From positions 14,521 to 78,520 of the forward strand of contig JAKLIA010000002.1 of the NCBI GenBank assembly GCA_022709865.1: 64,000 bases of DNA. The letters run 5' to 3'. The stretch comes from Patescibacteria group bacterium. GTDB taxonomy: Bacteria; Patescibacteriota; Minisyncoccia; Portnoybacterales; GWB1-42-6. Shown piece after piece: positions 5,993-47,428 of this stretch. The translations under genes and the position numbers were made by a program. The notes beneath the pieces are model-generated. The model was given only the letters and a program-made list of their open reading frames with translations, made no database searches and was not told the origin of the DNA. Each line of letters begins with the position of its first letter. Within the stretch, counting starts at the first letter, position 1.

Positions 5993-5997
5993 AAGCC

Positions 5998-6714: not shown

Positions 6715-6733
6715 CTTTTGTTAAAAAAAGAGC

Positions 6734-7963: not shown

Positions 7964-7969
7964 CTTTTT

Positions 7970-13000: not shown

Positions 13001-16000
13001 ATAATGTTAAAGATAATACCATTACCGGAAGTGCTCGATATGGCATAGTCTTGGATTATAATCCTCTTGAGGGTGATCAAGGGACTATTCCTTCTACGGC
13101 AAACACAATTTCCGGAAACACGATTACGCTTAGCGGAAGAGACGGAATTTATATCGGAAGAGAGAGCGATGATAATATAATCACTACTAATACCGTTAGC
13201 GGAACCGTTGGAACCGATGAAACGCTTGTAACTGATAACGGCTTAGAAGGAAACGGTATTTATTTTTGGAAATCAAGCGGGAACACCGTAACAAATAATA
13301 CCATCTCTGATAACAATACAAATGGTATTGAGATGATGGGCTCAAATAACAATACTATTACAGGGAATTCTATCACGGGGAATAAAATAGGATTGCTTGC
13401 AAGACGCAGCGACTCTTTCGTCTTTTTCCCAAATACCTTCAGTGGAAATACTCTTACGGGTAATACGGAATATGCTGTTAGTACAAATTTTACTGAATCA
13501 GACGGATCTTTTATCGCCACTAGTAACTGGTGGGGCAGCGCGGACTACCAAACTATAAAAACAAAAGTTTCTAATAATGTTGATTATGCCCCTTGGTACG
13601 TTGACGAAAATAAAATCATCTTAAGCAATGACGTTTCCAGAAAACCGACAATCACGCTTTTGTCTCCGGCGGATGGTTTTTATTCCAAATCTGAAACAAC
13701 CTCCCATAAATTTAAAGTTTCCGATTCGGTGGATAGCTTAATAAGCTGCATTCTTCATTGGGGAGAAGCCGGCTCACAATCTTTTATCGATGTTCCGGCT
13801 GATAGCAGCGAATTTGATGCTGGCACATTAACTAATTCCGACGGCACGACAAATACTTGGTATGTTACTTGCTCCGATGGCGCGGGTAATTCCGGTGAAA
13901 GCGACCATTGGACTTTTACGGTTGATACTAGCGCGCCGGCAGAACCAACTATAGACGAAGTTTCTACCCCGACCAATATTTCTTCCCAAACCATTTCCGG
14001 AACAAAAGAAGCTAATACTTCGGTTTGGTTAAATGGTTTTGAAATTGTTTCTTTAGATGGCGGAGTAAATTGGTCTTATAACTTGTCTTTAACCGAGGGA
14101 ATTAATGAAATTTCAATTACCACAAAAGATGCGGCCGGCAACGAAAGCGAGGCGGTAACTTCAGCAATTATTTACGATACAACCGCCCCAGAAGGAACAT
14201 TGAGCATTAATGATGGCGCCGCATATACTAATAGCAGCGAGGTAACCTTAACTGTTTCAGCAACCGATGACGGTTCAGGCGTTAAATTAATGGCTTTTAA
14301 TAATGGAACAGGGGATTACAGCGAATGGGAAGAATACGCGACAACTAAAACCTGGACGCTTTCTGACAATGATGGCGCAAAAAAAGTTAGGGTAAAATTC
14401 CAAGATAACTTAGGCAATGTTACTGAAATTGGTATTCTGGCAGAAATAATTTTAGACACTGTGGCGCCGGTTATTACCATTGAACCTTATGACGACACCA
14501 CGCCAACCAGCCAAGATATAACGGTAACAGCCACGGCCGACCACGGATCATTTAACGAAAATCCGCATACTTTTACAGAAAACTCTTCATTCACTTTTAT
14601 CGCCACTGACTTGGCAGGAAACAGTACCAGTGAAAGCGTAGAGATAACTAATATCGATAAAGAAGAACCGGTTATTACCATTAATGGTCCGGATGTTGTT
14701 GAGATTGCATACGGTTCTTCTTATTCGGATGCCGGTGCGACCGCAACGGATAACCACGACGGCAGTATTACTGTAATTTCAAGCGGGGTAGATTCAGTTG
14801 ATACAAGCAAATTAGGCGATTATACGATTACTTATAACGCCACTGATAGCGCGGGCAATGCGGCTGTAGAAAAAACGCGAACAGTTAGTGTTGTTAAAGC
14901 GCTTTTAACAATAACCGCTAATGATGCCAGTAAAACTTATGGTGATGAAAAAGTTTTTGCCGGCACAGAATTTACGGCTACAGGCTTACAAAATAGCGAC
15001 ACCATAACAAGCACAACTATTGTCAGTAGCGGCTCTGATGCCAGTGTTTTCGCGGGAAGCTATGATATTGAAATTACCGATGCTCAGGGTAGCGGGCTTA
15101 GCAATTACGAGATTGCTTATAACAAAGGAACTTTAACGGTTAATAAAAAAGCTCTCACGGTTACGGCTGAAGCCAACAAAAAGACTTACGATGGCGATAC
15201 AGTCGCCGCCGCAATTCCGGTTATAACGGGAACTTTAGCCAATAGCGACACGGCCGGTTTTATTGAAGCTTACAGCAACGCCAATGTCGGCACAGGCAAA
15301 ACACTTGTGCCCAGCGGAATAGTTAATGACGGCAACGACGGAAATAATTATGCCGTGACTTTTGTAAATAACACCGCCGGTATTATTGTGGCTCAAGCGC
15401 CAAGTAGCTTCGCGGCAGATTCGGCAACGACTAATAGTTTAGCTTTGTCATGGACCAACCCTAATGCGAATTCTAATGATCATTATATTGTTAAGCGTTC
15501 AGCCAGCGAAATTACCGCAGAAAATTTTGATACGGCATTAACTTTAGGCGGCACACCAATACCGGCGACAGGCAATCAAGGTTATGCGGTTAAAAATTTA
15601 TCAGCTGACACAACATATTATTTCGCGATTAAATTAGTTGATAGCCTTGGCAACACGGCTGGTATCTCTACAGCTTCCGGCAAAACCTTGGCGGCGACTG
15701 ATATTTCCACCGATACCGTGGCTCCGAGCGCGATAGGCGACTTGGCGGCTCAGGCCGGAACAATAGCTACCAGTCAAATTAAATTAACCTGGACGGCAAC
15801 AGGCGACGATGAAACAACCGGCATCGCTACCAAATACATTATTAAGCGCTCTGGAAGCACTATAACGGCCGATAATTTTGATGCGGCCACAACCGTGTTT
15901 AATTCGCTATCACCGCAAAGCGCGGGTTCAGCCGAATCTTTCACGGTTACCGGTTTAACCTCGGGTACGACTTATTATTTCGCGATTAAGGCGCAAGACG

Positions 16001-17862
16001 AAGCCGGAAAGATTTCGGATATCAGTAATATCGCCAATAGAACAACCAGCTCTGATTTACCGACAAACACAAACGTGAATCCGGCGACCGGACAAAATGA
16101 CGGAGCGGTGGCGATAACGGTGACCGGAACAAATTTCGTTGATGGCGCCAATACTTTAAGATTTTCCAATTCCCAAAATTCTTTTGATTTAACGGCAACC
16201 TATATTAGCGCGACCAGCTTAACGGCCTCAGTGCCGGTGGGCACGCCGGTTGGCACTTATAGCTTGAAGGTTATTAATTCCAACGGCACCTCAGCTGCTT
16301 TGCTTTCAGCCTATGAAGTCACAGCCGCGCCGATTCCGCCGCCAACTGTCAACGATGTTATACCGTCAACTGTTGGCACTAACGACACTAATATTAATCT
16401 AACAATTATCGGTTCTAACTTTACGGGCGCGACTTCAGTGACAATCAATGGTGTGGCTCTTGATGTCCTAAGTGTGGATAGCGATACCAGTATCACCGGG
16501 GCGCTATCCGGTATTGGCGTAGCGGGCAGTTATGATGTAAAAGTTACAGCTAATGGCACCAATGAAATGAGCTCGGTTAAATTAACTGTTAAGGCGCCGC
16601 TAATTATTGATTCCACTACCCTGGAACAAACAACTAATGATCCGATTGATTTGAGTACCACCAACACTATTCCGGTTCAAATAACTTTGCAATCCGACGA
16701 CACAATTGTTAATACCGAAACCGTTGGTTCGGTAGAAGTGGTTATTCCACCGGCCACAGAGATATTGAAAGCCGATGGCACCGCCTACACCGGCAACATT
16801 AATCCACCGCAGATCGTTAAGCCGACCGAAGAAATTATCGCTAAAGCCGGAGCTGACGCGGTGGTCATAACGATGGGTAATCCAGAAGAAAAAATTACTT
16901 TTAGCAACGATTTTGTCACGACTGTTACGTTGGAAACAACCAATACCGCGGCTCCGTTAATTTGGTATTATAAACCGGATGGCACATTGGAATTAGCGGG
17001 TAAAGCCGGAATTAAGGATGGAGTGACTTACGCGGTTGGCGGTACGGTTTTAAACACGGTCAATAACGGCTCAATCTACACCTACACTATCGGCATTCTG
17101 ATGGATCATATGTCTAGTTATGTGGCGGGCGTTAATCCGACTATCAGCTCTCTTTCGCCGACTGCCAGTCAGTCCGGCAATACGATAACTATTACCGGCA
17201 CTAATTTTAGTGTTGGCGCCACGGTTACCTTTAACGGAGCAACCGTAATAAGTTCATACTTAAATACCACCAGTATGTCGGCAATCGTACCGGCTAGCAG
17301 CGTAGGAACTTATAATGTAGCCGTAATTAATACCGATGGTTTAAGTAGTAACAATAAGACCTTTGATATTATCCCAGTCCCATACAATCTTACTAGTGGT
17401 GGTTCTTTAGGAGGTAGCAGTGGTACTTCAATGGTGCAACCAACAATTACTGCTCCGGCAACTGAAATTACCGGCCAAGTCTTAGGCGAACAGACATTCG
17501 CGGATGGCGCAATGATCCGAGCGACTAACGGTTTTGATGTTTATATCGTTAAATATACGGGTAATAAAAAGTTTAAGCGCTTAATCTTAAATCCATCGGT
17601 GTTCAATAGCTATCAGCATTTGAAATGGGCCGATGTTCTGAATGTTGACCAAAGCGTGATAGACTCGTTCACAACCTCGGAGTTGGTCCGGGTAGTGGGC
17701 GACACCAGAGTCTACAAGCTGGCTCCAGCTGGTGATACCGGAACCAAGCAATGGGTTAAGACAGCTGCCGCGTTCAACAATAGAAGCTTTGATTGGGATG
17801 CAATCTATGAAATTAATGCCACCGATCGCAACTCCTATATCACCGGCGCAGAGATAGAATAA
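10054..17862 (+). CDS. Giant (2602-aa) cell-surface protein. N-terminal signal anchor; two blocks of right-handed parallel beta-helix (pectate-lyase/NosD-like) repeats; Ig-like and DUF5011-like domains; MBG domains; two FN3 domains; three IPT/TIG-like domains.
   Basis: N-terminal TM/signal (LVFLVAAIIMIGGFFVLFAPPAHA). Repeated NxISGNTI / GIYL beta-helix rungs. NWWGS...YDPWY capping motifs occur twice. ATDNHDGSITV...YTITYNATDSAGN (DUF5011-like). KTYGDE / KTYDGD MBG-type repeats. SWTNP...YYFAIK FN3 repeats (x2). ITVTGTNF...Y..KVIN IPT/TIG-like repeats (x3). No C-terminal TM or LPXTG. Confidence 0.85.
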   Translation: MNKQNRGFVSSVKNAKKGLVFLVAAIIMIGGFFVLFAPPAHAATINVNVACVDTDLETAVCDDGATYRTIQGAIDAAVTGDTVEVAAGIYTEQILIQKDLILTGAGKEATTIKAPAIVRNSAPGYTSTTWSSDNWESDYLLAAYPMALGDSDPTISVKVTGFTFDADNQPGQFSRFTGILFRKVAGSTVADAGLFNSDIKGFASSGSTVTGIRILDGSKLTLDNNTVEKYYMGAISYGTTNLTRPIVNMTNNIFYPNSGNINDDIEYREARAGLISGNTVNYNGMSSSLKYPIVLVSSHGLTVENNILSYAVNGIYIYSNSDSNTISGNTISNCSSNGIYLSNSDSNTISGNTISNVKYSGFGNTIAEVNNGAAGWGIGFDGEYNDGSLIAGTGSNNNTVTGNTVSDSDVAVDVYVGAGNTVNNKNNFSGNFIAVHNNEVALLDATENYWGSATPVWASTISGNITYDPWYADEAMTILSTPEEVYVDDDYKAESAGSHIWGIDAFATIQEGINKVATGGTVNVAAGTYADNLTINKSITINGANAGIAGNASRGSESIVDGGDSGAVVTITADDVTFDGFKVQNSGLTGVEAGIFIQGVSGVNVKNNIVTDNFAGIALAAATLNTVENNALTLNYFGIYVGTDTNPSTGNTIKENDVATTIKTPLGEDKYSGDGIYVDKDCNENIFTDNNVHNNDKDGFYFWKSSNSEVTGNIISGNVAFGIEMKGSSNNAVTDNTITENKDGFHIRNTAEVGYSIIGNNISTNKIYDNTRVNLYTDANQDTNFKAENNWWGSANKTTIESKLAGYGFDLSSETNTTPGTLEYIDFEPYYISNAKDILNTDAVDTVYVDDGYSDNNAGTHSFGYDAFTTIAEGINAVASGGTVNVMAGTYTENLTISKSITILGEDKTTTIIDGNGSGAVVKITANDVALKNFTVQNSGTDILENDGTNGGILVQDATGCTIENNIFTNDLNSVLLLASSSNNVKDNTITGSARYGIVLDYNPLEGDQGTIPSTANTISGNTITLSGRDGIYIGRESDDNIITTNTVSGTVGTDETLVTDNGLEGNGIYFWKSSGNTVTNNTISDNNTNGIEMMGSNNNTITGNSITGNKIGLLARRSDSFVFFPNTFSGNTLTGNTEYAVSTNFTESDGSFIATSNWWGSADYQTIKTKVSNNVDYAPWYVDENKIILSNDVSRKPTITLLSPADGFYSKSETTSHKFKVSDSVDSLISCILHWGEAGSQSFIDVPADSSEFDAGTLTNSDGTTNTWYVTCSDGAGNSGESDHWTFTVDTSAPAEPTIDEVSTPTNISSQTISGTKEANTSVWLNGFEIVSLDGGVNWSYNLSLTEGINEISITTKDAAGNESEAVTSAIIYDTTAPEGTLSINDGAAYTNSSEVTLTVSATDDGSGVKLMAFNNGTGDYSEWEEYATTKTWTLSDNDGAKKVRVKFQDNLGNVTEIGILAEIILDTVAPVITIEPYDDTTPTSQDITVTATADHGSFNENPHTFTENSSFTFIATDLAGNSTSESVEITNIDKEEPVITINGPDVVEIAYGSSYSDAGATATDNHDGSITVISSGVDSVDTSKLGDYTITYNATDSAGNAAVEKTRTVSVVKALLTITANDASKTYGDEKVFAGTEFTATGLQNSDTITSTTIVSSGSDASVFAGSYDIEITDAQGSGLSNYEIAYNKGTLTVNKKALTVTAEANKKTYDGDTVAAAIPVITGTLANSDTAGFIEAYSNANVGTGKTLVPSGIVNDGNDGNNYAVTFVNNTAGIIVAQAPSSFAADSATTNSLALSWTNPNANSNDHYIVKRSASEITAENFDTALTLGGTPIPATGNQGYAVKNLSADTTYYFAIKLVDSLGNTAGISTASGKTLAATDISTDTVAPSAIGDLAAQAGTIATSQIKLTWTATGDDETTGIATKYIIKRSGSTITADNFDAATTVFNSLSPQSAGSAESFTVTGLTSGTTYYFAIKAQDEAGKISDISNIANRTTSSDLPTNTNVNPATGQNDGAVAITVTGTNFVDGANTLRFSNSQNSFDLTATYISATSLTASVPVGTPVGTYSLKVINSNGTSAALLSAYEVTAAPIPPPTVNDVIPSTVGTNDTNINLTIIGSNFTGATSVTINGVALDVLSVDSDTSITGALSGIGVAGSYDVKVTANGTNEMSSVKLTVKAPLIIDSTTLEQTTNDPIDLSTTNTIPVQITLQSDDTIVNTETVGSVEVVIPPATEILKADGTAYTGNINPPQIVKPTEEIIAKAGADAVVITMGNPEEKITFSNDFVTTVTLETTNTAAPLIWYYKPDGTLELAGKAGIKDGVTYAVGGTVLNTVNNGSIYTYTIGILMDHMSSYVAGVNPTISSLSPTASQSGNTITITGTNFSVGATVTFNGATVISSYLNTTSMSAIVPASSVGTYNVAVINTDGLSSNNKTFDIIPVPYNLTSGGSLGGSSGTSMVQPTITAPATEITGQVLGEQTFADGAMIRATNGFDVYIVKYTGNKKFKRLILNPSVFNSYQHLKWADVLNVDQSVIDSFTTSELVRVVGDTRVYKLAPAGDTGTKQWVKTAAAFNNRSFDWDAIYEINATDRNSYITGAEIE
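11011..11121 (+). repeat. Perfect 42-bp direct repeat (two copies, 69-bp period) inside the giant gene, corresponding to duplicated beta-helix rungs
   Basis: aactccgacagcaacactatttctggcaatacaatatctaat occurs at 11011-11052 and again at 11080-11121. The 69-bp (23-aa) period matches the beta-helix coil length. In frame (NSDSNTISGNTISN x2). Confidence 0.8.
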
Positions 17863-17944: not shown

Positions 17945-18979
17945 ATGTTTCATTTGCTAAAAAAGGACTTTATTCCTCATGAAGCCAATGGCCACCAGCC
18001 TCATATTTTAAGATGGGAGGCTCTTTTAGCTGTTTTAGGCTTAGCCCTTGGAATAGAGGTCTTTTTTTTAGCCCAAGTTTTTGTTTTAGGACCGCTTGGC
18101 AATATTTTTTCTTCTATTTTGCCTTCAACCTTAACCAGCTTAACGAATCTTGATCGCCAAAAGGATAATCTGTCGACCTTAACCGTTAATCCTATTTTAC
18201 AAAAAGCAGCCGAACTTAAAGCGCAGGATATGGCGGCTAAAAGTTATTTTGCTCACACGAGCCCCGAAGGCTTAACTCCGTGGTATTGGCTGGAAGAAGC
18301 CGGGTATAAGTTTATTGTCGCTGGCGAAAACCTGGCTATTAACTTTGTGGATTCGCAAGACGTGGAGAATGCCTGGATGAACTCTCCTGCGCACCGCGCT
18401 AATATTTTAAATAATAACTTCACAGAAATCGGCATTGCGACAGCCAAGGGGGTTTATAATGGCAAGGAAACATTTTTTATTGCACAATTTTTTGGCCGGC
18501 CGGCAGCAGCTGCTGCAATTGAACAAAAAGAAAAAGAAGTTGAACCGATAGCCACACCTTCTTTTTCTCTAAAGCCAAGCCCGGCTACCACCAGCCCAGA
18601 AATCGAGAGCCAAGAAACCTTCGCTTTAGTTATGGGAGAAACCAAAGAAGCGCAAGAGACACTAATAGTGTCGGAGCTGCCAATAACTCCAACTGCGCCC
18701 CAAAAAGAACAATTGGAATCATATAAATCCGTATTGGCAAACAAATCGGCTTTTTTATCTCAAGTGCAAAAAATCCTATCCGAGCCTCACAGTATGACTA
18801 ATTATCTTTTTATTATGCTTTTTACTATAATTTTACTGGCGTTAGTTTTAAAGATTTTTGTTAAAATTAAAATCCAATACCCTGCATTAATTGCTAACGG
18901 ATTAGTTGCCTTGTTAGTCATCTCTTCTATTATGTTGATTAACCAGTTTTTAAGCTTATATCAGGTTAAGATCTTTTAG
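17945..18979 (+). CDS. CAP-domain (SCP/PR-1/YkwD-like) protein with N-terminal TM anchor, Ala/Pro-rich linker and C-terminal hydrophobic helices
   Basis: CAP motifs YFAHTSPEG...WMNSPAHRANIL. N-terminal TM. C-terminal two hydrophobic segments. Confidence 0.8.
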   Translation: MFHLLKKDFIPHEANGHQPHILRWEALLAVLGLALGIEVFFLAQVFVLGPLGNIFSSILPSTLTSLTNLDRQKDNLSTLTVNPILQKAAELKAQDMAAKSYFAHTSPEGLTPWYWLEEAGYKFIVAGENLAINFVDSQDVENAWMNSPAHRANILNNNFTEIGIATAKGVYNGKETFFIAQFFGRPAAAAAIEQKEKEVEPIATPSFSLKPSPATTSPEIESQETFALVMGETKEAQETLIVSELPITPTAPQKEQLESYKSVLANKSAFLSQVQKILSEPHSMTNYLFIMLFTIILLALVLKIFVKIKIQYPALIANGLVALLVISSIMLINQFLSLYQVKIF

Positions 18980-19349: not shown

Positions 19350-20447
19350 TTGACAAGATATATCTTTTCTGTTATAATTTTACATATGGAATATTTGGCT
19401 CAAACAAAACAAAAAATAACCGGCTGGCTGGCAAAAGTAAGAATTGTTTTGCTGGAAGTTTTTGTGCCGAAAGAAACAAATAATTATTTACCCAAAGCTT
19501 TAAAGTCAAAGTATCTGTTTTGGTATGGCGCGTCTCTTTTGGCCGTTAAAATTATTTTTTTGTCTTTGGCTTTGGTTTTGCCATCGACCAGCCTTTTTTC
19601 ATCAATTACCTCACAGCAGCTCATAGCTATGATAAACCAAGAGCGCCAGGCCAGGAATCTTTCAACCTTAACGCTAGATAGCAACTTAAACTCTGTGGCC
19701 GGCTTGAAAGTAAACGATATGTTGGCAAAAAATTATTTTGACCACACCAGCCCTTCGGGCATCACTCCTTGGTATTGGTTTAAGCAGATCGGCTACAACT
19801 ATGTTTATGCTGGGGAAAACTTAGCTATGGGCTTTACCGAAACTGAGGCGGTTTTTCAAGCCTGGATGAACTCGCCGACCCATCGGGATAACATCTTGAA
19901 TCCTAATTATTCTGAAATAGGGCTGGCAGTAAAATCCGGCCAGATATTAAACCACGAAGACACCTTAGCGGTGCTAGTTTTTGGCAAAGAGCAATCTTCG
20001 GCAGTTAAAACTCAAGTTGCCCAGGCTTCGCCAACTCCTAGTGCTGTCGCGCCTGCGGCTCAAAAAACCGCAATTCCTTCTCCGGTAAAAACAACTCTGC
20101 CTAATGCTGAGCCGGTTATTTCAAATAGCCCTGTGGTAGCCGCGGCTACTCCTTCATCCAGCCCATCAATGGCGAACCAGATCGAATTAAAAACTATTGC
20201 CAAAGAAGAGGCGCCGATCTCTCGGGCAGCCCAAGAGGTAGCCCAAACCGGCTATGCGCCGCGGGTTTTAGGCGCGTTTGTTTCTAAGTCCGACGAAATA
20301 TTTAAAAGCCTTTATTTATACTTTACTTTATTCTTAGCTTGCGCCTTACTGGTTAATATCTTTGTGAAAATACGGATACAATATTGGCCAACCGTTATCG
20401 CTACGACTTTAATAACTTTATTGTCGGCTATATTAATTTTTGTTTAA
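19350..20447 (+). CDS. CAP-domain protein, tandem paralog of 17945-18979 (true start may be the internal Met at 19386)
   Basis: NYFDHTSPSG...WMNSPTHRDNIL. Same TM-CAP-linker-TM architecture as the upstream paralog. Confidence 0.8.
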   Translation: MTRYIFSVIILHMEYLAQTKQKITGWLAKVRIVLLEVFVPKETNNYLPKALKSKYLFWYGASLLAVKIIFLSLALVLPSTSLFSSITSQQLIAMINQERQARNLSTLTLDSNLNSVAGLKVNDMLAKNYFDHTSPSGITPWYWFKQIGYNYVYAGENLAMGFTETEAVFQAWMNSPTHRDNILNPNYSEIGLAVKSGQILNHEDTLAVLVFGKEQSSAVKTQVAQASPTPSAVAPAAQKTAIPSPVKTTLPNAEPVISNSPVVAAATPSSSPSMANQIELKTIAKEEAPISRAAQEVAQTGYAPRVLGAFVSKSDEIFKSLYLYFTLFLACALLVNIFVKIRIQYWPTVIATTLITLLSAILIFV

Positions 20448-20452
20448 CTATC

Positions 20453-21598
20453 ATGATGAAAAAGAACATAAAAGATATTCTTGGCTGTTTGCCTAAAGCC
20501 TTATTTGGCAATTTTATGATCGGCGCGGGCGCTTTATCTTTGGGCATTATCTTGGGTGGGCCTAAAATCTATATTTCTCTTAATACCGCAATCATTTCTT
20601 TTGCAGTTTTATTGGCTCTATATATTGTTTTAACTTGGTGGAGCGTTTGGGCATTATCTAGGGGGTGCAAAAACGACAATCTTTCTGAGCTAGTTATTAA
20701 TGGACCGTATGCGCTGACTAGAAATCCAATGTACGCGGCGATAATTTTTATTTTAAATCCGGCGCTAGGGATCCTTTTCCGTTCCTGGCTGTTATTTATA
20801 GCAATTATCCCGATCTATTTTTTTTGGCGCAAATGCGTGATAGCGGAAGAGCGAGGTTCGCTAACTACTAAGTTCGGCGCGGCGCACGAAGAATATTTAA
20901 AAACTACTCCGCGATTTTTTCCTAATTTTCGCCGCGTTAGCCCATTTTTATCCTATGGCCTAATCGGCATTTTTATCTTCTCGGTCAGTTTTATCTTTTT
21001 GAACTTTAACGCGCTGTATTTGCGCTGGGTGGTTTTTGAAACTAATGGCAAGATCACTTACGATGAGCCGGCTCCTAAAATGAGCGTTTTTCCGTCTACC
21101 CAATCGGGGAGTTTAACGACTAATAAAACGCCTTATTCGACTGAAACGCCCAATATCAATAGCGTAGAATATAATGCTAACGCCAATATGATAATCATTA
21201 GTCGTCTTGGCATTCGAGCTCCTTTGGTTATGGCTAGCGGCACAACCCAGAAGCAATTAAACGAATCGTTGAATCAGGGCGTAATAATCTATCCGGGCAG
21301 CGCTTTACCCGGGCAAAATGGTGAACTTGTTTTGTCGGGCCATAGTTCAATATTTCCATGGGTAAAAACCCAATACGGCCAAGTTTTTACTCTGCTGGAT
21401 AAACTTCAAGCAGGGGATACGGTTTCGGTGATATATAACCATCGCCAATATGATTACCAAATTACGGGGCAGGAAGTGTTGAATCCAAACCAAGTAAAAA
21501 TAGCCGAATCGGCTACACCGGCATTAAAAATGACAACTTGCTGGCCAATTGGCACTTCGGCTAAGAGATTGGTTGTTTATGGAGCGTTGATTCAGTAA
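20453..21598 (+). CDS. Fusion protein: N-terminal ICMT/PEMT-like membrane methyltransferase-family domain plus C-terminal sortase (transpeptidase) domain
   Basis: N-terminus: 4-5 TM helices with NGPYALTRNPMYAAII and EERGSLTTKFGAAHEEYLKTTPRFFP (ICMT family RHPxY and EE...Y motifs, with His replaced by Asn). C-terminus: sortase fold motifs LVLSGHSS (catalytic His), LKMTTCWP (TLxTC catalytic Cys), AKRLVV (Arg). Start taken at the in-frame ATG 20453, just after the upstream stop at 20447. Confidence 0.75.
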   Translation: MMKKNIKDILGCLPKALFGNFMIGAGALSLGIILGGPKIYISLNTAIISFAVLLALYIVLTWWSVWALSRGCKNDNLSELVINGPYALTRNPMYAAIIFILNPALGILFRSWLLFIAIIPIYFFWRKCVIAEERGSLTTKFGAAHEEYLKTTPRFFPNFRRVSPFLSYGLIGIFIFSVSFIFLNFNALYLRWVVFETNGKITYDEPAPKMSVFPSTQSGSLTTNKTPYSTETPNINSVEYNANANMIIISRLGIRAPLVMASGTTQKQLNESLNQGVIIYPGSALPGQNGELVLSGHSSIFPWVKTQYGQVFTLLDKLQAGDTVSVIYNHRQYDYQITGQEVLNPNQVKIAESATPALKMTTCWPIGTSAKRLVVYGALIQ

Positions 21599-21611: not shown

Positions 21612-21641
21612 TTGACAAGAATAGATAAAATAGTATATAAT
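21612..21641 (+). promoter_or_regulatory. Sigma70-like promoter upstream of the secreted-protein and lipoprotein genes
   Basis: TTGACA at 21612-21617, 17-18 nt spacer, TATAAT-like ATATAAT at 21635-21641. Confidence 0.45.
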
Positions 21642-21725: not shown

Positions 21726-22100
21726 ATGAAAAAGACCGTTATTACTATTTTCGTGTTAGCGGTATTGTTGGTGGGTAGCGGTCAAGTTTTTGGTTGCTCC
21801 CTCTGTGATAGGCTTACAAAGCTCGGTTATTCTAACCAGGAAATTGTAAGCATCATTAGCGGCAGCGCTACGCGCGCTGAAGCTGAAGACAGGATGCGGC
21901 AAGTGATTCTTCGGGGCGGAAACGTTCCTGTGAAAATGGCCCGTTATTCGCCTAACCGATCTGTTTTAGTTCCGTCGCAAAAAGCGAAAATACCAGATCT
22001 TTTTCCGGAGCAAAAACAAAAATACAAATATTCGGAAGAGGAACAAGAGGTTCCTCCGATGAATGGATCGGCCATGGCCGAAACGAAAAAGAGGAGGTAA
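21726..22100 (+). CDS. Small secreted hypothetical protein (signal peptide, CxxC, Lys/Glu-rich tail)
   Basis: RBS AAGGAGG 6 nt upstream. Cleavable N-terminal signal MKKTVITIFVLAVLLVGSGQVFG. Confidence 0.5.
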   Translation: MKKTVITIFVLAVLLVGSGQVFGCSLCDRLTKLGYSNQEIVSIISGSATRAEAEDRMRQVILRGGNVPVKMARYSPNRSVLVPSQKAKIPDLFPEQKQKYKYSEEEQEVPPMNGSAMAETKKRR

Positions 22101-22104
22101 GAAA

Positions 22105-22830
22105 ATGAAGAAGGAATATTTGTTGTTGAATGTTATTTTCTTGTGCCTCTTGTTTTTCCAAGGCTGCACAGGATTAATAGTCTCGCGCGCGGATGCGCCC
22201 GAGGAAATCATAATGCGGGAAGCTAAAACGGTAAAAGCCACGGAGCCTTATGAGGTGGACCAAAAACTTCTGCCGGCCAGAATGGATTTAATTTCTTCGA
22301 TTCCCCAAGGGGAATATAAGAAATTAAAGCTTGGCGGCAATCCCGTTGGCCCGGTATCCAAAAATACTGTGAAAAAACTTCAGGACGAAGCCCGAGAGTC
22401 AAAATCAGTCATTTTTATCAATAGAGAAAAAATGATAATTGAGACTCAAGGCGGCAACGGCAAATGGTATCGTGGTTGGGTAGAGCCTGAAACTGTTTTT
22501 CTAGCTAAGGCTAATTATGATGCTTCCACCGGCATTACCGAATATGAATTATATAAGCTCGGTATTTGCTGGAACCCGGTGCGAAATGTAAAAGTTCGCC
22601 AATTGCCGGTAATCTTGAAGATCACAGAACGATATCGCGATACGACAAAACAAATTATCGAACAGCGGTATCGAGACACCGACTATACGCCTGCTCTTTG
22701 GGCAGGGCTTGGAGGGCTTGCAGTTGGCGGCGTGCTTGGTTGGATATTGCATCCGGCGGCCACGACAACGGTTATTACTAAGACCCTCGGTTGTATCGGC
22801 GGTCCTGCACCCCTTCCCTTAGTTCCTTAA
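22105..22830 (+). CDS. Putative lipoprotein, hypothetical
   Basis: RBS GAGGAGG 7 nt upstream of the ATG at 22105. Signal with lipobox-like LFFQGC. Gly-rich hydrophobic C-terminus. Confidence 0.55.
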   Translation: MKKEYLLLNVIFLCLLFFQGCTGLIVSRADAPEEIIMREAKTVKATEPYEVDQKLLPARMDLISSIPQGEYKKLKLGGNPVGPVSKNTVKKLQDEARESKSVIFINREKMIIETQGGNGKWYRGWVEPETVFLAKANYDASTGITEYELYKLGICWNPVRNVKVRQLPVILKITERYRDTTKQIIEQRYRDTDYTPALWAGLGGLAVGGVLGWILHPAATTTVITKTLGCIGGPAPLPLVP

Positions 22831-23000: not shown

Positions 23001-25493
23001 ATGAAAAAGATAATTTCCATTTTAACCGTATTTTTAACTATAAGCGCTATCGTAGCGCCGATTTTGGCGAACGCCGATGGCTCACCGCAATTTAATATTC
23101 AGAGCGGTGATCTAAAAACATTAGCCGTGGCCAACAGAACCACCGCTACCGGCTGGCAGGATAACAGCGTATCCGCTAGCAGCAATAATAGCGTGGCTTT
23201 TAGGGTTTATTATCACAATGGAGTGATAGATTCAGTGGCCCATAACACTCGGGTCCGCTTAACGTTTTCCAATAACGCCCAAAGCACCATTACGGTAAAC
23301 GCGGCTTTAAGCGCCGACAACGCGCCGACAAAAAATGACAGCGTGATTATCTATAGTTCTCCGGCGCAAACATTAGCCATGGAAACTAGCTCGATTCGCT
23401 GGTACCCGAACCAATCAACAACTCCGACCTATGTTTCGGCGACTTCTTATGGTTCAAATTATATTGAGTTAAATATTGGAGATATTCAAGGCTGCTGGCC
23501 ATATCAGGGTTATATTACTTTTATTGGTAATTTATCTCCTGTTGCTACTCCCACCCCGACTCCAACTCCGACCCCTACACCTACTCCTACCCCAACACCT
23601 ACCCCAAACTTAAATTACAACCTAACTGTCAGCAAGACCGTTCGGAACCAATCAAGCGGAACTAGCTATGGGTATAGCACCAGCGCTGTTTTAAATGATA
23701 CTTTAAACTTTCAAATTAGCGTTGTTAACACCGGAAACACCTCGTTAAGCAATGTTGTGGTGAGGGATAATATTCCTTATCCTTTAACTTACGTTAACGG
23801 CTCAACCAATGAAAATGGCTCTTATTTGGCGGATGGCATAACCGGCAACGGAATAAATATCGGCTCGTTAGCGCAAGGCGCCACCAGGACGATCACTTTT
23901 AGCGCTTTAGTAAATTATTATTATTCCTCTCAGACTGCCACTAACTATGGGTATGCCCGCGCGGACAATGTGAGCGAGAAGAGTTCCTCAGCTTATATTT
24001 ACTTATCTTCGGCAACTCCGACCCCGACTCCAACACCTGGTTATAGTTATTTAACTATCAATAAAACCGTCCGCAATTTAACTAGCGGCACAAGCGGCTA
24101 TATGGAAAGCGTAAATGCTAATGGTAATGACCGCATATCTTTCCAGGTTCAGATCCAAAATACCGGCAATACCACGCTGAATAATGTTTATGTCTATGAT
24201 ACTTTGCCTAGCTACCTTTCTTATGTTTCGGGCTCAGCTCGATTAGATGGTTCATATATGTCTGATGGAATAGTTTCCGGCGGAGTGAATATCGGTTCGC
24301 TGTCTTCAGGCTCTACCAGAACCATAGTTTTTGAAGTTACGGCTAACTATTATTCGTATGCTTCAAACCAAAACTTGATTAACTACGCTTATGCCCGCGC
24401 GGACCAAGTAAGCGAGCGCAGCGATACAGCCACAGTGTATTTGGGCCAAAGTTATAGCCAAGGAAATCTTAATATTTCCAAGACCGTCCGCAATACAACC
24501 ACCGGCACAAGCATGCAAAGCTCTGTTAATGCCAGCATCGGCGACCGAGTGATGTTTTTAATTCAAGTCTCAACGCCTTCAAGCTTAGGTAATCTTTATA
24601 ACGTGCGCGTTTGGGATACTTTGCCTTCCGGTTTAACTTATGTTCCGGGCTCAACCCGCATTGATAATGCTTATACCAGCGACGGCTTAACAACCGGCGG
24701 AATAAGCTTAGGCACGATGTCTGCCAACCAAAATCGCAGCATTAACTTTGAGGCGACAGTCAATTCTTATGGCGGCGCCCAAACCATTACTAACTATGCT
24801 TATGCTTCGGCGGATAATGTTGGCCAGCAGTCATCTTTTGCGCAAGTGGTAACGACCACAGGCTCGGCTTCAACTGTTTATGTTCCGGCAGCGACAATTT
24901 CTACTTCCGGATTGACTAAACGGGTAGATAATTTAACTTCCGCCAATGGAACGCAAACCGATAACACGGCTTCTGTGGGCCATGCCTTAAAATATACTTT
25001 GAGCTACTATAACAGCGGCTCTAGCATATTAACCAATGTCCGGTTCGTTGATACTTTGCCTTCATATACGACTTTTGTCAGCGCTGATAATGGCGGCAGC
25101 TATAACGCCAGCACTAATCAAATAACTTGGTATATGGGCAGCTTGTCTTCAGGTGCTACCGCTACTGTTTCTTATCAGGTTAATGTGATGCAGGTGCCGT
25201 ATAACGGCTATGTTATTGCCAATAGCGCGGCTTTTGCAGCTGATAATTTAAGCGCTATCAATTCCAACGAGGTTCGCACGACTGTGTCGACCGGCGTGGT
25301 CTTAGGCGCATCAATTGCGGCTGTCACCGGCAGCAACGACTTGGCGCGCAATATAGCTATTTCTCTGATGGTTTCTTTATGGGGCATATTCTTGGTATAT
25401 CTCTACAATGAATACGGCCTAGCGATCAATTGGAACAAACTAAAGTTTAAGTTCGCGGTTTGGCGGATTAGGGTTAAAGAAAAGTTGATGTAA
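23001..25493 (+). CDS. Cell-surface protein with four DUF11 (conserved repeat domain) modules joined by Pro-Thr linkers. C-terminal TM segment plus basic tail.
   Basis: Signal peptide (MKKIISILTVFLTISAIVAPILANA). Repeated TVRN..SGTS...V.NTGNT.L.NV.V.DTLP..L.YV.GS....G.Y..DG...GG...G domain (x4), which is the DUF11 pattern. (PT)n linkers at 23546-23606 and 24012-24037. C-terminal ...AAVTGSN...TM...KLKFKFAVWRIRVKEK. Confidence 0.8.
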   Translation: MKKIISILTVFLTISAIVAPILANADGSPQFNIQSGDLKTLAVANRTTATGWQDNSVSASSNNSVAFRVYYHNGVIDSVAHNTRVRLTFSNNAQSTITVNAALSADNAPTKNDSVIIYSSPAQTLAMETSSIRWYPNQSTTPTYVSATSYGSNYIELNIGDIQGCWPYQGYITFIGNLSPVATPTPTPTPTPTPTPTPTPTPNLNYNLTVSKTVRNQSSGTSYGYSTSAVLNDTLNFQISVVNTGNTSLSNVVVRDNIPYPLTYVNGSTNENGSYLADGITGNGINIGSLAQGATRTITFSALVNYYYSSQTATNYGYARADNVSEKSSSAYIYLSSATPTPTPTPGYSYLTINKTVRNLTSGTSGYMESVNANGNDRISFQVQIQNTGNTTLNNVYVYDTLPSYLSYVSGSARLDGSYMSDGIVSGGVNIGSLSSGSTRTIVFEVTANYYSYASNQNLINYAYARADQVSERSDTATVYLGQSYSQGNLNISKTVRNTTTGTSMQSSVNASIGDRVMFLIQVSTPSSLGNLYNVRVWDTLPSGLTYVPGSTRIDNAYTSDGLTTGGISLGTMSANQNRSINFEATVNSYGGAQTITNYAYASADNVGQQSSFAQVVTTTGSASTVYVPAATISTSGLTKRVDNLTSANGTQTDNTASVGHALKYTLSYYNSGSSILTNVRFVDTLPSYTTFVSADNGGSYNASTNQITWYMGSLSSGATATVSYQVNVMQVPYNGYVIANSAAFAADNLSAINSNEVRTTVSTGVVLGASIAAVTGSNDLARNIAISLMVSLWGIFLVYLYNEYGLAINWNKLKFKFAVWRIRVKEKLM

Positions 25494-25502
25494 TTTTAGC
25501 TT

Positions 25503-25555
25503 GGGGCTTAATTCTTTTTGCAGAGCAAAAAGAATTAAGCCCCGTTTCTTTGTTT
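25503..25555 (+). terminator. Strong Rho-independent terminator after the DUF11 gene
   Basis: 17-bp perfect stem GGGGCTTAATTCTTTTT / AAAAAGAATTAAGCCCC, loop GCAGAGC, then a T-rich tract. Confidence 0.7.
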
Positions 25556-25973: not shown

Positions 25974-27005
25974 ATGACTCAAGGAGGGTTGGAAAAATTC
26001 GTGGCTTATCTGCGCCAGAACGGCTGGCCGATTTTTGGGCCGGTTTTCTCAGCTGAAAAAACCGAAGAGGTTTCGCCGTTCTTAGCTGCTCACCAGCCAA
26101 AATCAGCGCATAAAGACGGACAGATCTATATTAAAGAAATCCAAAAAGCTGAAGACCTGGACTTATCCGGGCAATTGCCGTTCTATTCTTTTAAGCGTTT
26201 TTTTGTGCCGGAGCAAGAATGCCTTTTCCAATACGAAAAAGAGAAACTAGACCAGCCGGAAAAAGAACAAAAGGCAGCTTTGCTTGGCATGAGCATTTTA
26301 GACCTGAAAGCGGTTAACCTTTATGATCAAGTCTTTGAAAAGGACCCATATTATCAGCTCCGCCGGCGTAATTTGCTGATAATCGGCTATTCCTTAACTC
26401 CCGAGATACAAGGCAATCTTTTTGAAATAGAATATGAGGAAAATATTTTAGAGCATTTGCCTTTTGATATTTTTTTAGTAAAAACAGATAAAGCCTTTAA
26501 GGTTTTTACCGGCTCGATAAAAGGGCAAAGAGTGCTGGAGGATTTTGGCTATAAAGATTACCAGCATATCCAATACAGCGGGCCGGTCAAAGAAGGAAAG
26601 TTAGAAGAACGGATGGAGCGCTTGCGCGACCGGCTAAAAAACCATCCCAATCCCCAAATCTGGGAGGAGCTGGGCAAGATTTGTATTGAATGCGGCAAAT
26701 GCACCTTGGCTTGCCCGACTTGTTTTTGCTTCCGTATAGACGATAAGCCGGCTTTAAAAGAGGGCGCGGGCAAAAGGACTCGGGAATGGGATTCTTGTTT
26801 TTACCAAGAGTTTTCCGAAGTGGCTGGTGGGCACAAGTTTTTAAAGACCACAGCCGCCAGGATACTTTTTTGGTATTACCATAAGTTTGCCCGAATCCCT
26901 GACGAGTTTGATTTTATGGGTTGCGTGGGGTGCAAGCGATGCGCTAAAGTTTGCCCTGTGGGCATAAATATAGAAGAAGTTTTAAAGAAAATAGAGAACT
27001 CTTAA
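25974..27005 (+). CDS. Group 3b [NiFe]-hydrogenase (sulfhydrogenase-type) beta subunit, 4Fe-4S protein (HydB/AsrA-like)
   Basis: Two ferredoxin-type cluster motifs, CIECGKCTLACPTCFC and CVGCKRCAKVCPVG. Directly upstream of, and stop/start-coupled to, the gamma subunit. Confidence 0.7.
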   Translation: MTQGGLEKFVAYLRQNGWPIFGPVFSAEKTEEVSPFLAAHQPKSAHKDGQIYIKEIQKAEDLDLSGQLPFYSFKRFFVPEQECLFQYEKEKLDQPEKEQKAALLGMSILDLKAVNLYDQVFEKDPYYQLRRRNLLIIGYSLTPEIQGNLFEIEYEENILEHLPFDIFLVKTDKAFKVFTGSIKGQRVLEDFGYKDYQHIQYSGPVKEGKLEERMERLRDRLKNHPNPQIWEELGKICIECGKCTLACPTCFCFRIDDKPALKEGAGKRTREWDSCFYQEFSEVAGGHKFLKTTAARILFWYYHKFARIPDEFDFMGCVGCKRCAKVCPVGINIEEVLKKIENS

Positions 27006-27830
27006 TTGCTGCTGATGAATAATCCCTACGAATCACAATCAGCCAGAATATCTTTTATTTCCAGGCAGACAGACAATATTAAATTGTTCCGTTTTGAATT
27101 GGGCAAAAAAATTAAATACCAACCTGGGCAATTCGTGGAGTTGTCTTTGCCGGGTTTTGGCGAAGCGCCCTTTGCGCCTTGCGGCGATGCCAAAGAAAAC
27201 TATATTGAGCTTTGCGTTAGAAACGCAGGCAAATTAACCGCCAAGCTCCATGAAATGAAGGTTGGGGACAAAGTTGGCCTTCGCGGGCCTTTTGGCAATG
27301 GGGTTTGGCCGTTGAATAAATATGATTTTAAAAAGCAGAAAAATCTTTTTATTGCGGTTGGCGGGCTGGGCTTTGTTCCTTTGCGGACTTTGATCCTTGG
27401 TAAAGACGACTTATTGGGCAGTGGCACAAAAGTGCAGATATTTTATGGCGCCAAATCTCCGGATGATATGCTTTTCCGACACGAATACGACCGGTGGAAA
27501 AAGCAAAACATCCAATTGGAGCTCACGGTGGATAAAGAATGCGTTGGTTGGAAAGGGTGCACAGGGCTGGTTACGACGCTTTTTGACAAACATGAAGTTG
27601 TCCAAAACTCAGTCGCTTTTATTTGTGGGCCGCCTGTAATGTACCGGCCGATATTGGAAAAGCTTCAAAAATTGGGCTTTGCGGATGAGGATATTTATTT
27701 GTCGCTGGAGAGGAGAATGCACTGCGGCATAGGAGTTTGCCAACATTGCGCCGTTGGCCCATACTATACTTGCAAAGATGGCCCGGTTTTCAGCTGGGCG
27801 CAGCTAAAAACCATTCCTGAAGCAATTTAA
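27006..27830 (+). CDS. Group 3b hydrogenase gamma subunit: FAD/NAD(P)-binding oxidoreductase with C-terminal 2Fe-2S (HydG/AsrB-like)
   Basis: Ferredoxin-NADP reductase-like fold (RFELGKKIKYQPGQFVEL, GGLGFVPL). C-terminal CGIGVCQHCAV cluster motif. Confidence 0.75.
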   Translation: MLLMNNPYESQSARISFISRQTDNIKLFRFELGKKIKYQPGQFVELSLPGFGEAPFAPCGDAKENYIELCVRNAGKLTAKLHEMKVGDKVGLRGPFGNGVWPLNKYDFKKQKNLFIAVGGLGFVPLRTLILGKDDLLGSGTKVQIFYGAKSPDDMLFRHEYDRWKKQNIQLELTVDKECVGWKGCTGLVTTLFDKHEVVQNSVAFICGPPVMYRPILEKLQKLGFADEDIYLSLERRMHCGIGVCQHCAVGPYYTCKDGPVFSWAQLKTIPEAI

Positions 27831-27993
27831 ATTAGATAAGCTAATAATTAATAATTAAGATAATTTTTAAGGTTTTATGCGAAAATTCAAGTTAATGGTA
27901 GGAGACGATATAATGGACCTTCTTCCGTCTATCCTGACCGCATTTATCATAATTGCCGGATTTGTCACTTTAATAATAAAAAACTTATAGACC

Positions 27994-28188
27994 ATGTGCC
28001 TCACTATCCCCAAAAAAGTTATTTCAGCTGGAAAGGAGGCTATTGTTGTCAAAGCTGGGGAGAAAAAAGAAATAGTAGCCAGCCTCTTGCCGGTCAAAAA
28101 AGGGGATTGGGTCTTAACGCAGAGCCAAGTCATAATCAAAAAAATAACCGCTAAGCAGGCTAAAGAAATAAATAATCTCATTATTTAA
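27994..28188 (+). CDS. hypC: Hydrogenase maturation factor HypC/HupF family
   Basis: 64 aa beginning MCLTIP (the essential N-terminal Cys2 motif of HypC) and GDWVL near the C-terminus. Confidence 0.75.
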   Translation: MCLTIPKKVISAGKEAIVVKAGEKKEIVASLLPVKKGDWVLTQSQVIIKKITAKQAKEINNLII

Positions 28189-28198
28189 AAACTATCAT

Positions 28199-30564: not shown

Positions 30565-30576
30565 TTTTGTCTTTTT

Positions 30577-45399: not shown

Positions 45400-46902
<1,503 letters not shown>

Positions 46903-47142: not shown

Positions 47143-47428
47143 GCCCCTCACTTGAAAAGGATATGTTTTATGTTTATGTCCTAAAAAGTGAAGTAGATGA
47201 TAAACTGTATATTGGCTATACAGATGATCTACGACGCAGAATTGAAGAACATAGCAAAGGAAAGTCAAAGGCAACAAATCCAAGGAAACCATTTAAGCTG
47301 GTTTATTACGAGGCCTACTTCTCCCGAAGCGATGCTAAATATAGGGAAAGTCAATTAAAAAGATTTTCTGGTTCATACACACATCTGAAAAGAAGAATTA
47401 AAAATTCAATCCTTTTCAAGTGAGGGGC
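47143..47428 (+). mobile_element. GIY-YIG ORF cassette bracketed by a perfect 20-bp inverted repeat, inserted at the 5' end of tRNA-Ile
   Basis: Left arm gcccctcacttgaaaaggat (47143-47162) and right arm atccttttcaagtgaggggc (47409-47428) are exact reverse complements. The 11-nt gggcgattagc is directly repeated at 47134-47144 and 47425-47435; the second copy is the start of tRNA-Ile. Confidence 0.5.
47163..47423 (+). CDS. Small GIY-YIG nuclease-family protein (86 aa)
   Basis: MFYVYVLKSEVDDKLYIGYTDDLRRRIEEH: the GIY-(10 aa)-YIG spacing and the conserved Arg and Glu of the GIY-YIG fold. The stop codon lies inside the right IR arm. Confidence 0.8.
   Translation: MFYVYVLKSEVDDKLYIGYTDDLRRRIEEHSKGKSKATNPRKPFKLVYYEAYFSRSDAKYRESQLKRFSGSYTHLKRRIKNSILFK

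Follow-up and report, generated by a model that had tools for sequence, protein, structure and literature searches.

A sortase joined to an ICMT/PEMT-fold membrane domain

In a 64,000-nucleotide (nt) stretch of DNA from a Patescibacteria group bacterium (contig JAKLIA010000002.1, positions 14,521 to 78,520; hereafter, the window), we found a gene whose product joins an N-terminal membrane domain of the ICMT/PEMT methyltransferase fold to a complete sortase. It is strongly supported that this is one membrane protein whose two active-site folds differ and lie on opposite sides of the membrane, and the fusion is real and conserved within a narrow set of uncultured lineages of ultra-small bacteria. 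An earlier reading of this DNA from its letters alone (the sequence-only reading) had described one open reading frame (ORF) of this composition and had considered it an unusual sortase architecture. The continuous frame and the domain searches bore out the composition, and every motif quoted in that reading was found at its place in the translation. The architecture is indeed unusual, since ordinary sortases normally have one membrane helix where this protein has a whole enzyme fold.

The uninterrupted ORF extends from a TTG codon at 20384 to 21598. The N-termini of the homologues match the ATG at 20453 (MMKKN...), and the protein start at this codon, MMKKNIKDILGCLPKA, agrees with the start of all of them. 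The protein begins with a core of four helices in the ICMT/PEMT fold, passes through a fifth membrane helix and ~40 disordered linker amino acids (aa), and ends with a complete sortase domain; in the structural models, a helix covering residues 164-197 occupies the fifth-helix position. The fusion is both the sole sortase ORF and the sole ICMT-like ORF of the window. Model confidence is given below as the predicted local distance difference test (pLDDT), and 4A2N is the structure of Ma-ICMT.

20453-21598, forward strand: ICMT-like::sortase fusion gene, 381-aa protein, stop codon included
20453-20932, forward strand: ICMT/PEMT-fold core, aa 1-160, four membrane helices plus cofactor-pocket helices predicted to be cytoplasmic
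20720-20734, forward strand: RNPMY, variant of the RHPxY cofactor motif (His to Asn, aa 91), from the translation
20846-20923, forward strand: EE...KFG..H..Y....RFFP, C-terminal cofactor-pocket motif, aa 132-157, aligning with 26 residues of 4A2N
20942-21022, forward strand: fifth membrane helix, aa 164-190, absent from Ma-ICMT and equivalent to the signal-anchor helix of ordinary sortases
21038-21172, forward strand: linker, aa 196-240, poorly conserved and disordered, pLDDT <50 for aa 201-236
21173-21595, forward strand: sortase catalytic domain, aa 241-381, with a Pfam Sortase match and a fold match
21341-21343, 21539-21541 and 21566-21568, forward strand: sortase triad His297, Cys363 and Arg372, from the translation

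The fusion is conserved in Patescibacteria

A frameshift or an assembly join near 20950-21100 had been named in the sequence-only reading as the finding that would undo it. We found none, and the junction region is collinear in every family member across independent assemblies. A search of 5.8 billion protein clusters (NCBI, JGI, ENA and Logan assemblies) for the same fusion in relatives, which that reading had also proposed, recovered ~90 clusters that share the length and the two-domain architecture at 35-100% identity; over all searches, identity within the family goes down to ~32%. All of them come from Patescibacteria assemblies, the named ones being Portnoybacteria, Parcubacteria or plain Patescibacteria. 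The exact protein (P0001/HRY52717.1, 100% identical, deposited as 'sortase [Candidatus Portnoybacteria bacterium]') is encoded on three contigs (121, 131 and 287 kb) of different origin. A frameshift, a chimeric assembly and a mis-called gene are ruled out by the continuous frame, the three contigs and the ~90 collinear clusters; nothing was found in favour of such an artefact, and we regard its probability as negligible.

A profile search of 1.84 billion representatives at 50% identity placed ~14 full-length fusion clusters among the best 150 matches, including a distant, low-GC-looking branch (P0129, P0130, P0132 and P0134); after the fusions, only ordinary sortases followed. A scan with one sequence pattern detected the fusion in 8 of 185,579 species genomes. 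No version split into ICMT and sortase genes was present among the matches listed, a search in which adjacent separate genes were not specifically looked for, and a metagenome scan with the distant-group alignment returned one unrelated stand-alone ICMT-like locus only. Database records already carry both Pfam domains, and one of them is named 'putative isoprenylcysteine carboxyl methyltransferase'. A full-text literature search found no paper mentioning a sortase-ICMT fusion, which is apparently undescribed.

One distant fusion (P0273, locus L019) was deposited as 'sortase [Candidatus Pacearchaeota archaeon]'. The genes on its contig are typically bacterial (MreB, GatCA, NusG, SecE, L11, RF-1 and FtsX), and it was probably labelled archaeal through an error of binning or classification.

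The C-terminal half is a sortase outside the defined classes

The window protein matched the Pfam Sortase family (PF04203) with 82.9 bits (cut-off 26.6; E = 2e-23) and the TIGR01076 model with 46.1 bits (cut-off 39.35). The fold of its C-terminal domain matched structures of class C, D, A and E sortases with a Foldseek probability of 1.00 and an E-value of ~5e-10, and pLDDT was mostly 80-94 in this region. His297 lies in LSGHSS, Cys363 in TTCWP and Arg372 in KR. Residue tallies and regional identities were calculated over 86 full-length fusions, in which the triad His and Cys were both present in 86 of 86 proteins and the Arg in 85. Every testable feature places the domain in the sortase superfamily, catalysis itself being predicted from the sequence. 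None of the NCBIfam sortase class models reached its cut-off, the best being class E (NF033747; 69.2 bits versus 160), and the fold matches were not confined to one class (C, D, A and E). By these profile and fold comparisons, the protein lies outside every defined sortase class.

The N-terminal half has the ICMT/PEMT fold

All 50 matches listed for the full-length model were sortases, with no ICMT among those listed. Since sortases filled the matches to the full-length protein, the N-terminal half was modelled and searched separately. This domain has the ICMT fold; the figures tabulated against known structures were:

4A2N (Ma-ICMT): 12.5
8XKV chain G (Tam46, ICMT-like): 11.8
4QUV (sterol reductase, same superfamily): 10.1
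5VG9 (beetle ICMT): 9.8

Because of these structure matches, the N-terminal half is a genuine ICMT/PEMT-fold domain, although an atypical member of the superfamily. The profile of the fusion family aligned through positions 1-155 with residues 29-193 of the 194 of 4A2N (E = 8.6e-13) and also matched 5VG9 (E = 9e-5), and we detected a weak similarity to LmtA, a lipid A phosphate methyltransferase (E = 1.5e-4). The N-terminal region is thus not the generic anchor with several membrane helices that had been put forward as a refuting outcome, given its profile and fold matches to ICMT structures.

The Pfam models recommended for checking the two halves gave a divided answer, because the sortase exceeded its cut-off while the window protein scored just below the gathering score of PEMT (PF04191; 23.9 bits versus 25) and far below that of ICMT (PF04140; 11.1 versus 24; E = 0.58). 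Database records list PEMT and/or ICMT matches for most homologues. When six distant fusions were scanned, four scored just below the cut-offs of PEMT and ICMT, P0134 just at the ICMT cut-off (24.0) and one at 17-21 bits. The NCBIfam isoprenylcysteine methyltransferase model (NF040696) matched with E = 6.6e-8, and its 32.6 bits against an equivalog cut-off of 160 ruled out an orthologue of the protein isoprenylcysteine methyltransferases. Two elements that are non-canonical for ICMT, GGPKIYI in loop 1 and LNPA...FRSW at the turn between helices 3 and 4, are nearly invariant in the family and are predicted to lie on the extracellular face; in the model, loop 1 forms a short strand beside a strand that follows helix 5.

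The two active-site folds are predicted on opposite membrane faces

Lys and Arg residues number 15 in the N-terminus, loop 2 (which carries GPY..RNPMY) and loop 4 (which carries EE...RFFP), versus 2 in loops 1 and 3. The structure of Ma-ICMT ends right after its RLFP motif, just before the position of helix 5 of the fusion, and for ordinary single-helix sortases the match to the family profile begins only at the fifth helix (about position 150-170). The cofactor S-adenosylmethionine (SAM) is cytoplasmic. The positive-inside count, the fifth helix carrying the chain out, the cytoplasmic SAM and the known orientation of the ICMT pocket together place the two sites on opposite faces, so that charge distribution and homology point to a methyltransferase-type pocket on the cytoplasmic face and a sortase outside. 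Two family members, P0134 (507 aa) and P0271 (528 aa; locus L020, 10001-11587), have an insertion of ~110-130 aa between helix 5 and the sortase. It carries exactly two extra hydrophobic segments, an even number that leaves the side of the sortase unchanged.

The cofactor pocket is conserved even where its motif His is lost

In the window protein, the first pocket motif is contained in NGPYALTRNPMY (aa 83-94), which includes RNPMY, and the second in AEERG...KFGAAHEEYLKTTPRFFP (aa 131-157), where the first Tyr of the FG..Y..Y motif is a His. The change of the canonical His of RHPxY to Asn, which the sequence-only reading had pointed out, is correct in the translation. Across the family, this position is His in 50 proteins, Asn in 22, Ser in 9, Tyr in 4 and Asp in 1, that is, 58% His and 26% Asn, the window included. 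All the replacements are polar (Asn, Ser, Tyr or Asp) and none is hydrophobic. The remainder of the pocket and the regional identities were as follows:

Gly84, Arg90, Pro92 and Pro157: invariant in the 86 fusions
Tyr86, Tyr94, Glu132, Phe141 and Tyr148: 92-95% (Glu132 93%, Phe141 94%, Tyr148 94%)
Position 133: Glu or Asp in 100%
ICMT core, mean pairwise identity: 0.49 in the whole family, 0.67 in the Asn clade
Sortase domain, mean pairwise identity: 0.59 in the whole family, 0.72 in the Asn clade
Linker, mean pairwise identity: 0.27 in the whole family, 0.39 in the Asn clade

The pocket residues were conserved equally in proteins with and without the motif His. Because the identity of the ICMT core is far above that of the linker and near that of the sortase, both in the family and in the Asn clade, these alignments indicate that the ICMT half is under purifying selection even where the motif His has been lost. 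The distant branch keeps RHPF(Y/F), and the acidic EE run is also kept in the four members that were read (P0129, P0130, P0132 and P0134), from which we conclude that the ancestral fusion most likely had a canonical pocket. According to secondary sources, the motif His and the Glu contact SAM (PMC11069360; PMC12643142). The change to Asn in the clade of the window probably weakens cofactor binding and need not abolish it.

A further variable position in this pocket is aa 145 (nt 20885-20887), the first Tyr of FG..Y..Y, which is His in 11 of 22 Asn-clade members versus 2 of 50 His-type proteins and gives FGAAHEEY in the window. A His could have moved to position 145 of the pocket as compensation, or His145 could be a single inherited change, two explanations that phylogeny confounds.

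A DUF11 protein encoded next to the fusion carries a candidate sorting signal

The window contains one credible C-terminal signal of the type formed by a motif, a transmembrane helix and a basic tail, and it belongs to a surface protein encoded shortly downstream of the fusion.

23001-25493, forward strand: DUF11 (PF01345) surface protein, 830 aa, four Pfam DUF11 copies (E = 9.7e-42), probable dedicated substrate
25317-25490, forward strand: candidate C-terminal sorting signal, composed of AAVTG, the 7-aa spacer SNDLARN, an 18-aa hydrophobic helix and a 28-aa basic amphipathic tail

The DUF11 gene is located 1-2 kb downstream of the fusion in the contig of the window and in six other loci of the same main group, counting those with enough downstream DNA. 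The signal motifs in these six are QAVTG, AAVTG, QAITG, RAVTG, RAVTG and TARTG. In three loci of the distant branch, the gene beside the fusion encodes a secreted protein whose C-terminus carries VPVTG, VPTTG or VPKTG ahead of a helix and a basic tail, and the N-domain of this distant neighbour is homologous to that of the window DUF11 protein (37% identity; E = 1e-27). Counting the contig of the window (L001), six more main-group loci and three distant ones, each of the 10 informative loci has a protein with an (A/P)xTG motif, transmembrane helix and basic tail beside the fusion; the motif takes the form xA(V/I/R)TG in the group of the window and VPxTG in the distant group. Alignment of the ten signals showed an invariant Thr-Gly and a V-x-G a few residues upstream; the basic tails have ~25-28 aa in the window and most loci and 11 aa in one.

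Since a homologous signal-bearing protein stands beside the fusion in every informative locus, the best reading is a dedicated sortase-substrate pair, in which the DUF11 protein is the likely substrate. The sequence-only reading had singled out the same C-terminus for comparison and had seen no canonical LPXTG among the neighbouring genes; the first observation now extends to the 10 loci and the second was correct.

Other candidates were discarded. The VAQTG of the upstream CAP protein, considered as a second signal, is not conserved in the CAP homologues of other loci, and a 2602-aa neighbour has neither a C-terminal helix nor a signal. A homologue search with the DUF11 C-terminus gave only 3 matches, too few to tie the long basic tail to fusion-bearing genomes, and in the neighbourhoods of three ordinary Patescibacteria sortases (L014-L016) we found no adjacent substrate for a comparison of tails.

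A proposed mechanism and its alternatives

In the strongly supported part of the mechanism, the chain starts in the cytoplasm and crosses the membrane four times as an ICMT/PEMT-fold domain, with the pocket (GPY..R-N-PMY, EE, FG..Y..Y and FFP) on the cytoplasmic side. Helix 5, corresponding to the signal anchor of a sortase, crosses once more and leads through the flexible linker of ~40 aa to an extracellular sortase with an intact His-Cys-Arg triad. We further propose, from homology and gene context, that the DUF11 precursor would be exported, with its C-terminal helix and basic tail keeping it in the membrane. The tethered sortase would then cut between the Thr and the Gly of AAVTG, Cys363 would form the acyl-enzyme, and an amine acceptor, presumably a cell-wall precursor, would receive the cleaved protein. 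For its part, the ICMT-like half would keep a ligand (SAM) in its pocket and act at the inner leaflet on a membrane-embedded client, much as its characterised bacterial relatives RhlM and LmtA do on amphiphilic acids, and the fusion would put this inner-leaflet step at the site of surface-protein anchoring. For bacterial members of the ICMT family, methylation of amphiphilic carboxylates is described as proceeding from the inner leaflet (PMC11069360). The reading that we prefer, tentatively and at somewhat under an even chance, is that the ICMT-like half is a ligand-binding and possibly still active inner-leaflet methyltransferase with a client shared with the sortase reaction. A more specific proposal, which we consider doubtful, is that the ICMT-fold half recognises from the cytoplasmic leaflet (and in His-type members methyl-esterifies) either the signal helix and tail or a polyprenyl wall precursor, gating or directing transpeptidation on the outer face.

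Several observations weigh against a ligand-binding methyltransferase that shares a client with the sortase. The window protein scores below the gathering scores of both PEMT and ICMT and lacks the cofactor His found throughout the superfamily; this His has disappeared from 42% of the family, in at least four different ways, and drift towards a non-catalytic scaffold would look alike. Lower overall divergence partly explains the conservation of the pocket in members without His. The topology is deduced from sequence and homology, no candidate methyl acceptor emerged, and the amine acceptor of the sortase is a presumed one (the cell wall). The pairing of fusion and substrate may also partly reflect the collinearity of the lineage, because the flanks of the main-group loci, including a NiFe-hydrogenase cluster, are syntenic too; of the whole gene context, only the fusion-substrate pairing persists in the distant branch.

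The same loss of His in 36 of 86 proteins, in a family whose sortase His and Cys are invariant and whose Arg is kept in 85 of 86, is what would be expected if the ICMT-like half were a pseudoenzyme, a non-catalytic five-helix anchor that positions the sortase and/or docks the helix and basic tail of the signal, so that enzyme and substrate would form a dedicated pair. The sub-threshold Pfam scores fit this possibility, and so do the nearly invariant GGPKIYI and LNPA...FRSW on the extracellular face and the unusually long amphipathic basic tails of the cognate signals. There are precedents for such a role in Tam46, an ICMT-like subunit of a protein-import motor, and in the cytoplasmic extension of the class E sortase SrtE1, which is needed in vivo and has been proposed to mediate interactions (PMC5148588). 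A pure anchor would have no need of Tyr86, Arg90, Pro92, Tyr94, Glu132, Glu/Asp133, Phe141, Tyr148 and Pro157, which are kept at 92-100% across lineages only ~32% identical; the motif His was replaced solely by hydrogen-bonding residues, and binding of the tail by the ICMT half is purely putative. A non-catalytic anchor or lipid-binding module had been the fallback of the sequence-only reading; it survives as a live rival, weakened by the near invariance of the other pocket residues, also in members without His, and we judge such a scaffold possible but rather unlikely.

Lipid II is the usual sortase acceptor, and the ICMT-like domain could instead bind or methyl-esterify a polyprenyl-linked wall precursor at the inner leaflet (for example, the stem-peptide carboxylate of lipid II or a polyprenyl phosphate), readying or recruiting the acceptor for the sortase outside. 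The physical fusion argues for a common client, the weak similarity to LmtA points in the same direction, and a lateral lipid tunnel, which holds an isoprenoid or acyl chain beside an acid group, is the defining trait of the ICMT family (PMC11069360). This coupling is built wholly by inference, the acceptor would still need flipping before use, and no cell-wall synthesis gene belongs to the conserved cassette. We also know of no methyl-esterified peptidoglycan precursor, and regard preparation of the acceptor as improbable. Distinctly improbable, in our view, is that a lipid methyltransferase gene upstream of a sortase gene was fused to it for co-expression only, leaving two independent activities with no coupling. 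Such a fusion is topologically trivial, as the end of ICMT and the beginning of a sortase both lie in the cytoplasm, and the linker is disordered and poorly conserved. It has nonetheless been kept intact in two deeply diverged groups with very different neighbourhoods and without a split version among the matches listed (adjacent genes not being a specific target of the search), and the conserved extracellular loops of the ICMT half suggest a contact outside.

The sequence-only reading had drawn attention to CAAX processing, in which eukaryotic ICMT acts after an endoprotease, and had raised by this analogy the idea that the ICMT domain methylates the new C-terminal carboxylate made by the sortase. 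The analogy is conceptual only, and the evidence does not support such sequential processing, because the pocket would be cytoplasmic, as is SAM, and the sortase outside (15 versus 2 Lys and Arg, and a fifth helix between them). From this predicted topology, the ICMT-like half would be unable to reach the sortase product. In addition, sortase chemistry proceeds through a thioester to an amide and leaves no free carboxylate. Within the locus, the hallmarks of the CAAX pathway were absent, with no conserved Cys or lipidation site at the cleavage site and the two sites on opposite faces; prenyltransferase or CPBP genes were not searched for in the rest of the genome. We thus consider CAAX-like processing extremely improbable, and return to a ligand-binding inner-leaflet domain with a shared client as the preferred reading.

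Relation to known systems

The class E sortase SrtE1 of Streptomyces coelicolor resembles the fusion in the sortase fold and the His-Cys-Arg triad, and class E is its best NCBIfam class. In both proteins, the catalytic domain is preceded by a cytoplasmic N-terminal segment, a helix spanning the membrane and a flexible linker. The Ala at position P3 of the signals in the group of the window (xAxTG) recalls the LAXTG signal of SrtE1, whose cytoplasmic N-terminal extension is required for function in vivo (PMC5148588). Unlike class E, the fusion scores 69 bits against 160, has a folded four-helix ICMT-type domain instead of a soluble tail, pairs in its distant branch with VPxTG and occurs in Patescibacteria, whereas class E is found in Actinobacteria. 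Structural likeness of its sortase domain extends to class C and D sortases.

Ma-ICMT and the ICMT-PEMT superfamily, which includes RhlM (a rhamnolipid carboxyl methyltransferase) and LmtA, differ from the window protein in the cofactor His, replaced here by Asn. The fusion also has no counterpart to the first helix of Ma-ICMT, whose chain is matched by the profile only from residue 29, and adds an extra C-terminal helix, an extracellular enzyme domain and family-specific conserved extracellular loops; it falls below the Pfam and NCBIfam cut-offs. CAAX processing (Rce1 or Ste24, then ICMT) likewise brings an enzyme that cleaves a C-terminal signal and an ICMT-type domain into one functional context, but both of its steps occur on the cytosolic face and on a prenylated Cys, whereas in the fusion the two sites are predicted on opposite faces, cleavage is the work of a transpeptidase and there is no signal for prenylation. 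Exosortases, archaeosortases and rhombosortases, like the fusion, are polytopic enzymes with a dedicated signal of motif, helix and basic tail and are often encoded beside their substrate; their folds and catalytic domains are unrelated, and their active site lies in the polytopic domain itself. Tam46 (At5g59500; PDB 8XKV chain G) is an ICMT-like subunit of the chloroplast Ycf2-FtsHi protein-import motor and, unlike the fusion, is a separate subunit, eukaryotic and organellar, unrelated to sortases. The nearest functional precedents are Tam46 and the required cytoplasmic extension of SrtE1.

The architecture is real and conserved, and we expect a specialist to find it mildly to moderately surprising. 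This sortase is anchored by an entire enzyme fold whose cytoplasmic pocket is conserved, and the fold has long been retained in a lineage with very small genomes, in which domains seldom persist without use. If the two halves are functionally coupled, anchoring of surface proteins could be controlled from inside the cell, and a function would be gained for one branch of the bacterial ICMT family, in which few members (RhlM and LmtA) have known substrates. Should gating by the ICMT-fold half be true, this would be the first sortase whose choice of substrate or acceptor is controlled by a fused SAM-dependent membrane enzyme, and a new function linked to protein sorting for the large and mostly uncharacterised bacterial ICMT family. 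The system is compact, with one enzyme, one adjacent substrate and a defined signal (AAVTG or VPxTG), which makes heterologous testing feasible even though the organisms are uncultured. The analysis also points to a likely major surface adhesin of Portnoybacteria-type Patescibacteria, together with the route by which it is anchored, and the cell surface is central to the presumed host-attached lifestyle of these bacteria.

Gene neighbourhood and other features of the window

In the main group, the cassette has the order CAP-domain membrane protein, fusion, one or two secreted proteins or lipoproteins and DUF11 protein, often headed by a DsbA-like gene. Around the fusion and the DUF11 gene, the window shows the following features, of which the sigma-70-like promoter sites and the terminator site come from consensus scans only:

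19350-20447, forward strand: CAP-domain membrane protein (Pfam CAP, E = 4.2e-19), ending 6 nt upstream of the fusion
19350-19378, forward strand: promoter-like site, 12/12 consensus, overlapping the proposed TTG start of the CAP ORF
21612-21641, forward strand: promoter-like site TTGACA-18-TATAAT, 12/12, between the fusion and the lipoprotein and DUF11 genes
21726-22100, forward strand: small putative lipoprotein, 124 aa, N-terminal signal with ...VFGC, positional equivalents in L002-L004, no family match
22105-22830, forward strand: putative lipoprotein, 241 aa, lipobox FFQGC, Gly-rich hydrophobic segment and Cys/Pro-rich C-terminal tail, no Pfam match
25502-25544, forward strand: terminator-like hairpin (stem of 20 bp) adjoining the end of the DUF11 gene

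These pattern matches suggest two transcription units, CAP-sortase and lipoprotein-DUF11. Because a perfect promoter consensus overlaps the TTG proposed as the start of the CAP ORF, the real start is probably the ATG ~36 nt downstream of 19350, and the transcript is possibly leaderless. The CAP gene abuts the fusion in L001-L004, L011 and L013, and not in L005 or the distant group. The CAP proteins (17945-18979 and 19350-20447 in the window; also L002-L004, L011 and L013) share a conserved C-terminal module, P(R/K/Q)VLGxFxS...LYLYF.LFL...NIF(V/I)KI.IQ(Y/H)(W)P, followed by a second helix, which gives a two-helix membrane hairpin after the extracellular CAP domain.

The lipoprotein at 22105-22830 has CxN and C..GGP motifs that are conserved across the main-group loci. 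In this family (window, L002-L004, L011 and L013), the internal Cys motif varies as ICWNP, ICGN or WCGN, the Pro-rich tail holds a conserved Cys (C..GGP, CPPGG or TCPT), and the DsbA-like gene is often near. The tail of the L003 lipoprotein contains AAVTGG, identical to the substrate motif. No homology was detectable between the Cys/Pro-rich lipoprotein of the window group and the Pro-rich neighbour of the distant group.

Farther away, the window contains a complete bacterial 16S rRNA gene (45400-46902) followed by tRNA-Ile(GAT) and tRNA-Ala(TGC) at 47425-47639. The next 16 kb after the tRNAs hold protein-coding ORFs and no 23S rRNA gene, and the rRNA operon appears to be split. Just upstream of the CAP genes, positions 10054-17862 encode the secreted protein of 2602 aa mentioned above, with beta-helix/NosD repeats and Ig-like and MBG domains, which is absent at the equivalent position in the other loci. 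Directly downstream of the cassette (25974-31872) are genes for a Fer4_22 protein, a FAD/NAD-binding protein, EamA, DUF6390 and the small (Oxidored_q6) and large (NiFeSe_Hases) subunits of a NiFe-hydrogenase; this hydrogenase cluster is of the cytoplasmic type and is syntenic in L003-L005. Finally, ORFs of 534, 238, 409 and 421 aa at 4388-9235 match the sizes of the YknX-like, ABC ATPase and MacB/FtsX permease genes located upstream in L005, and these sizes suggest a MacB-type efflux or export system.

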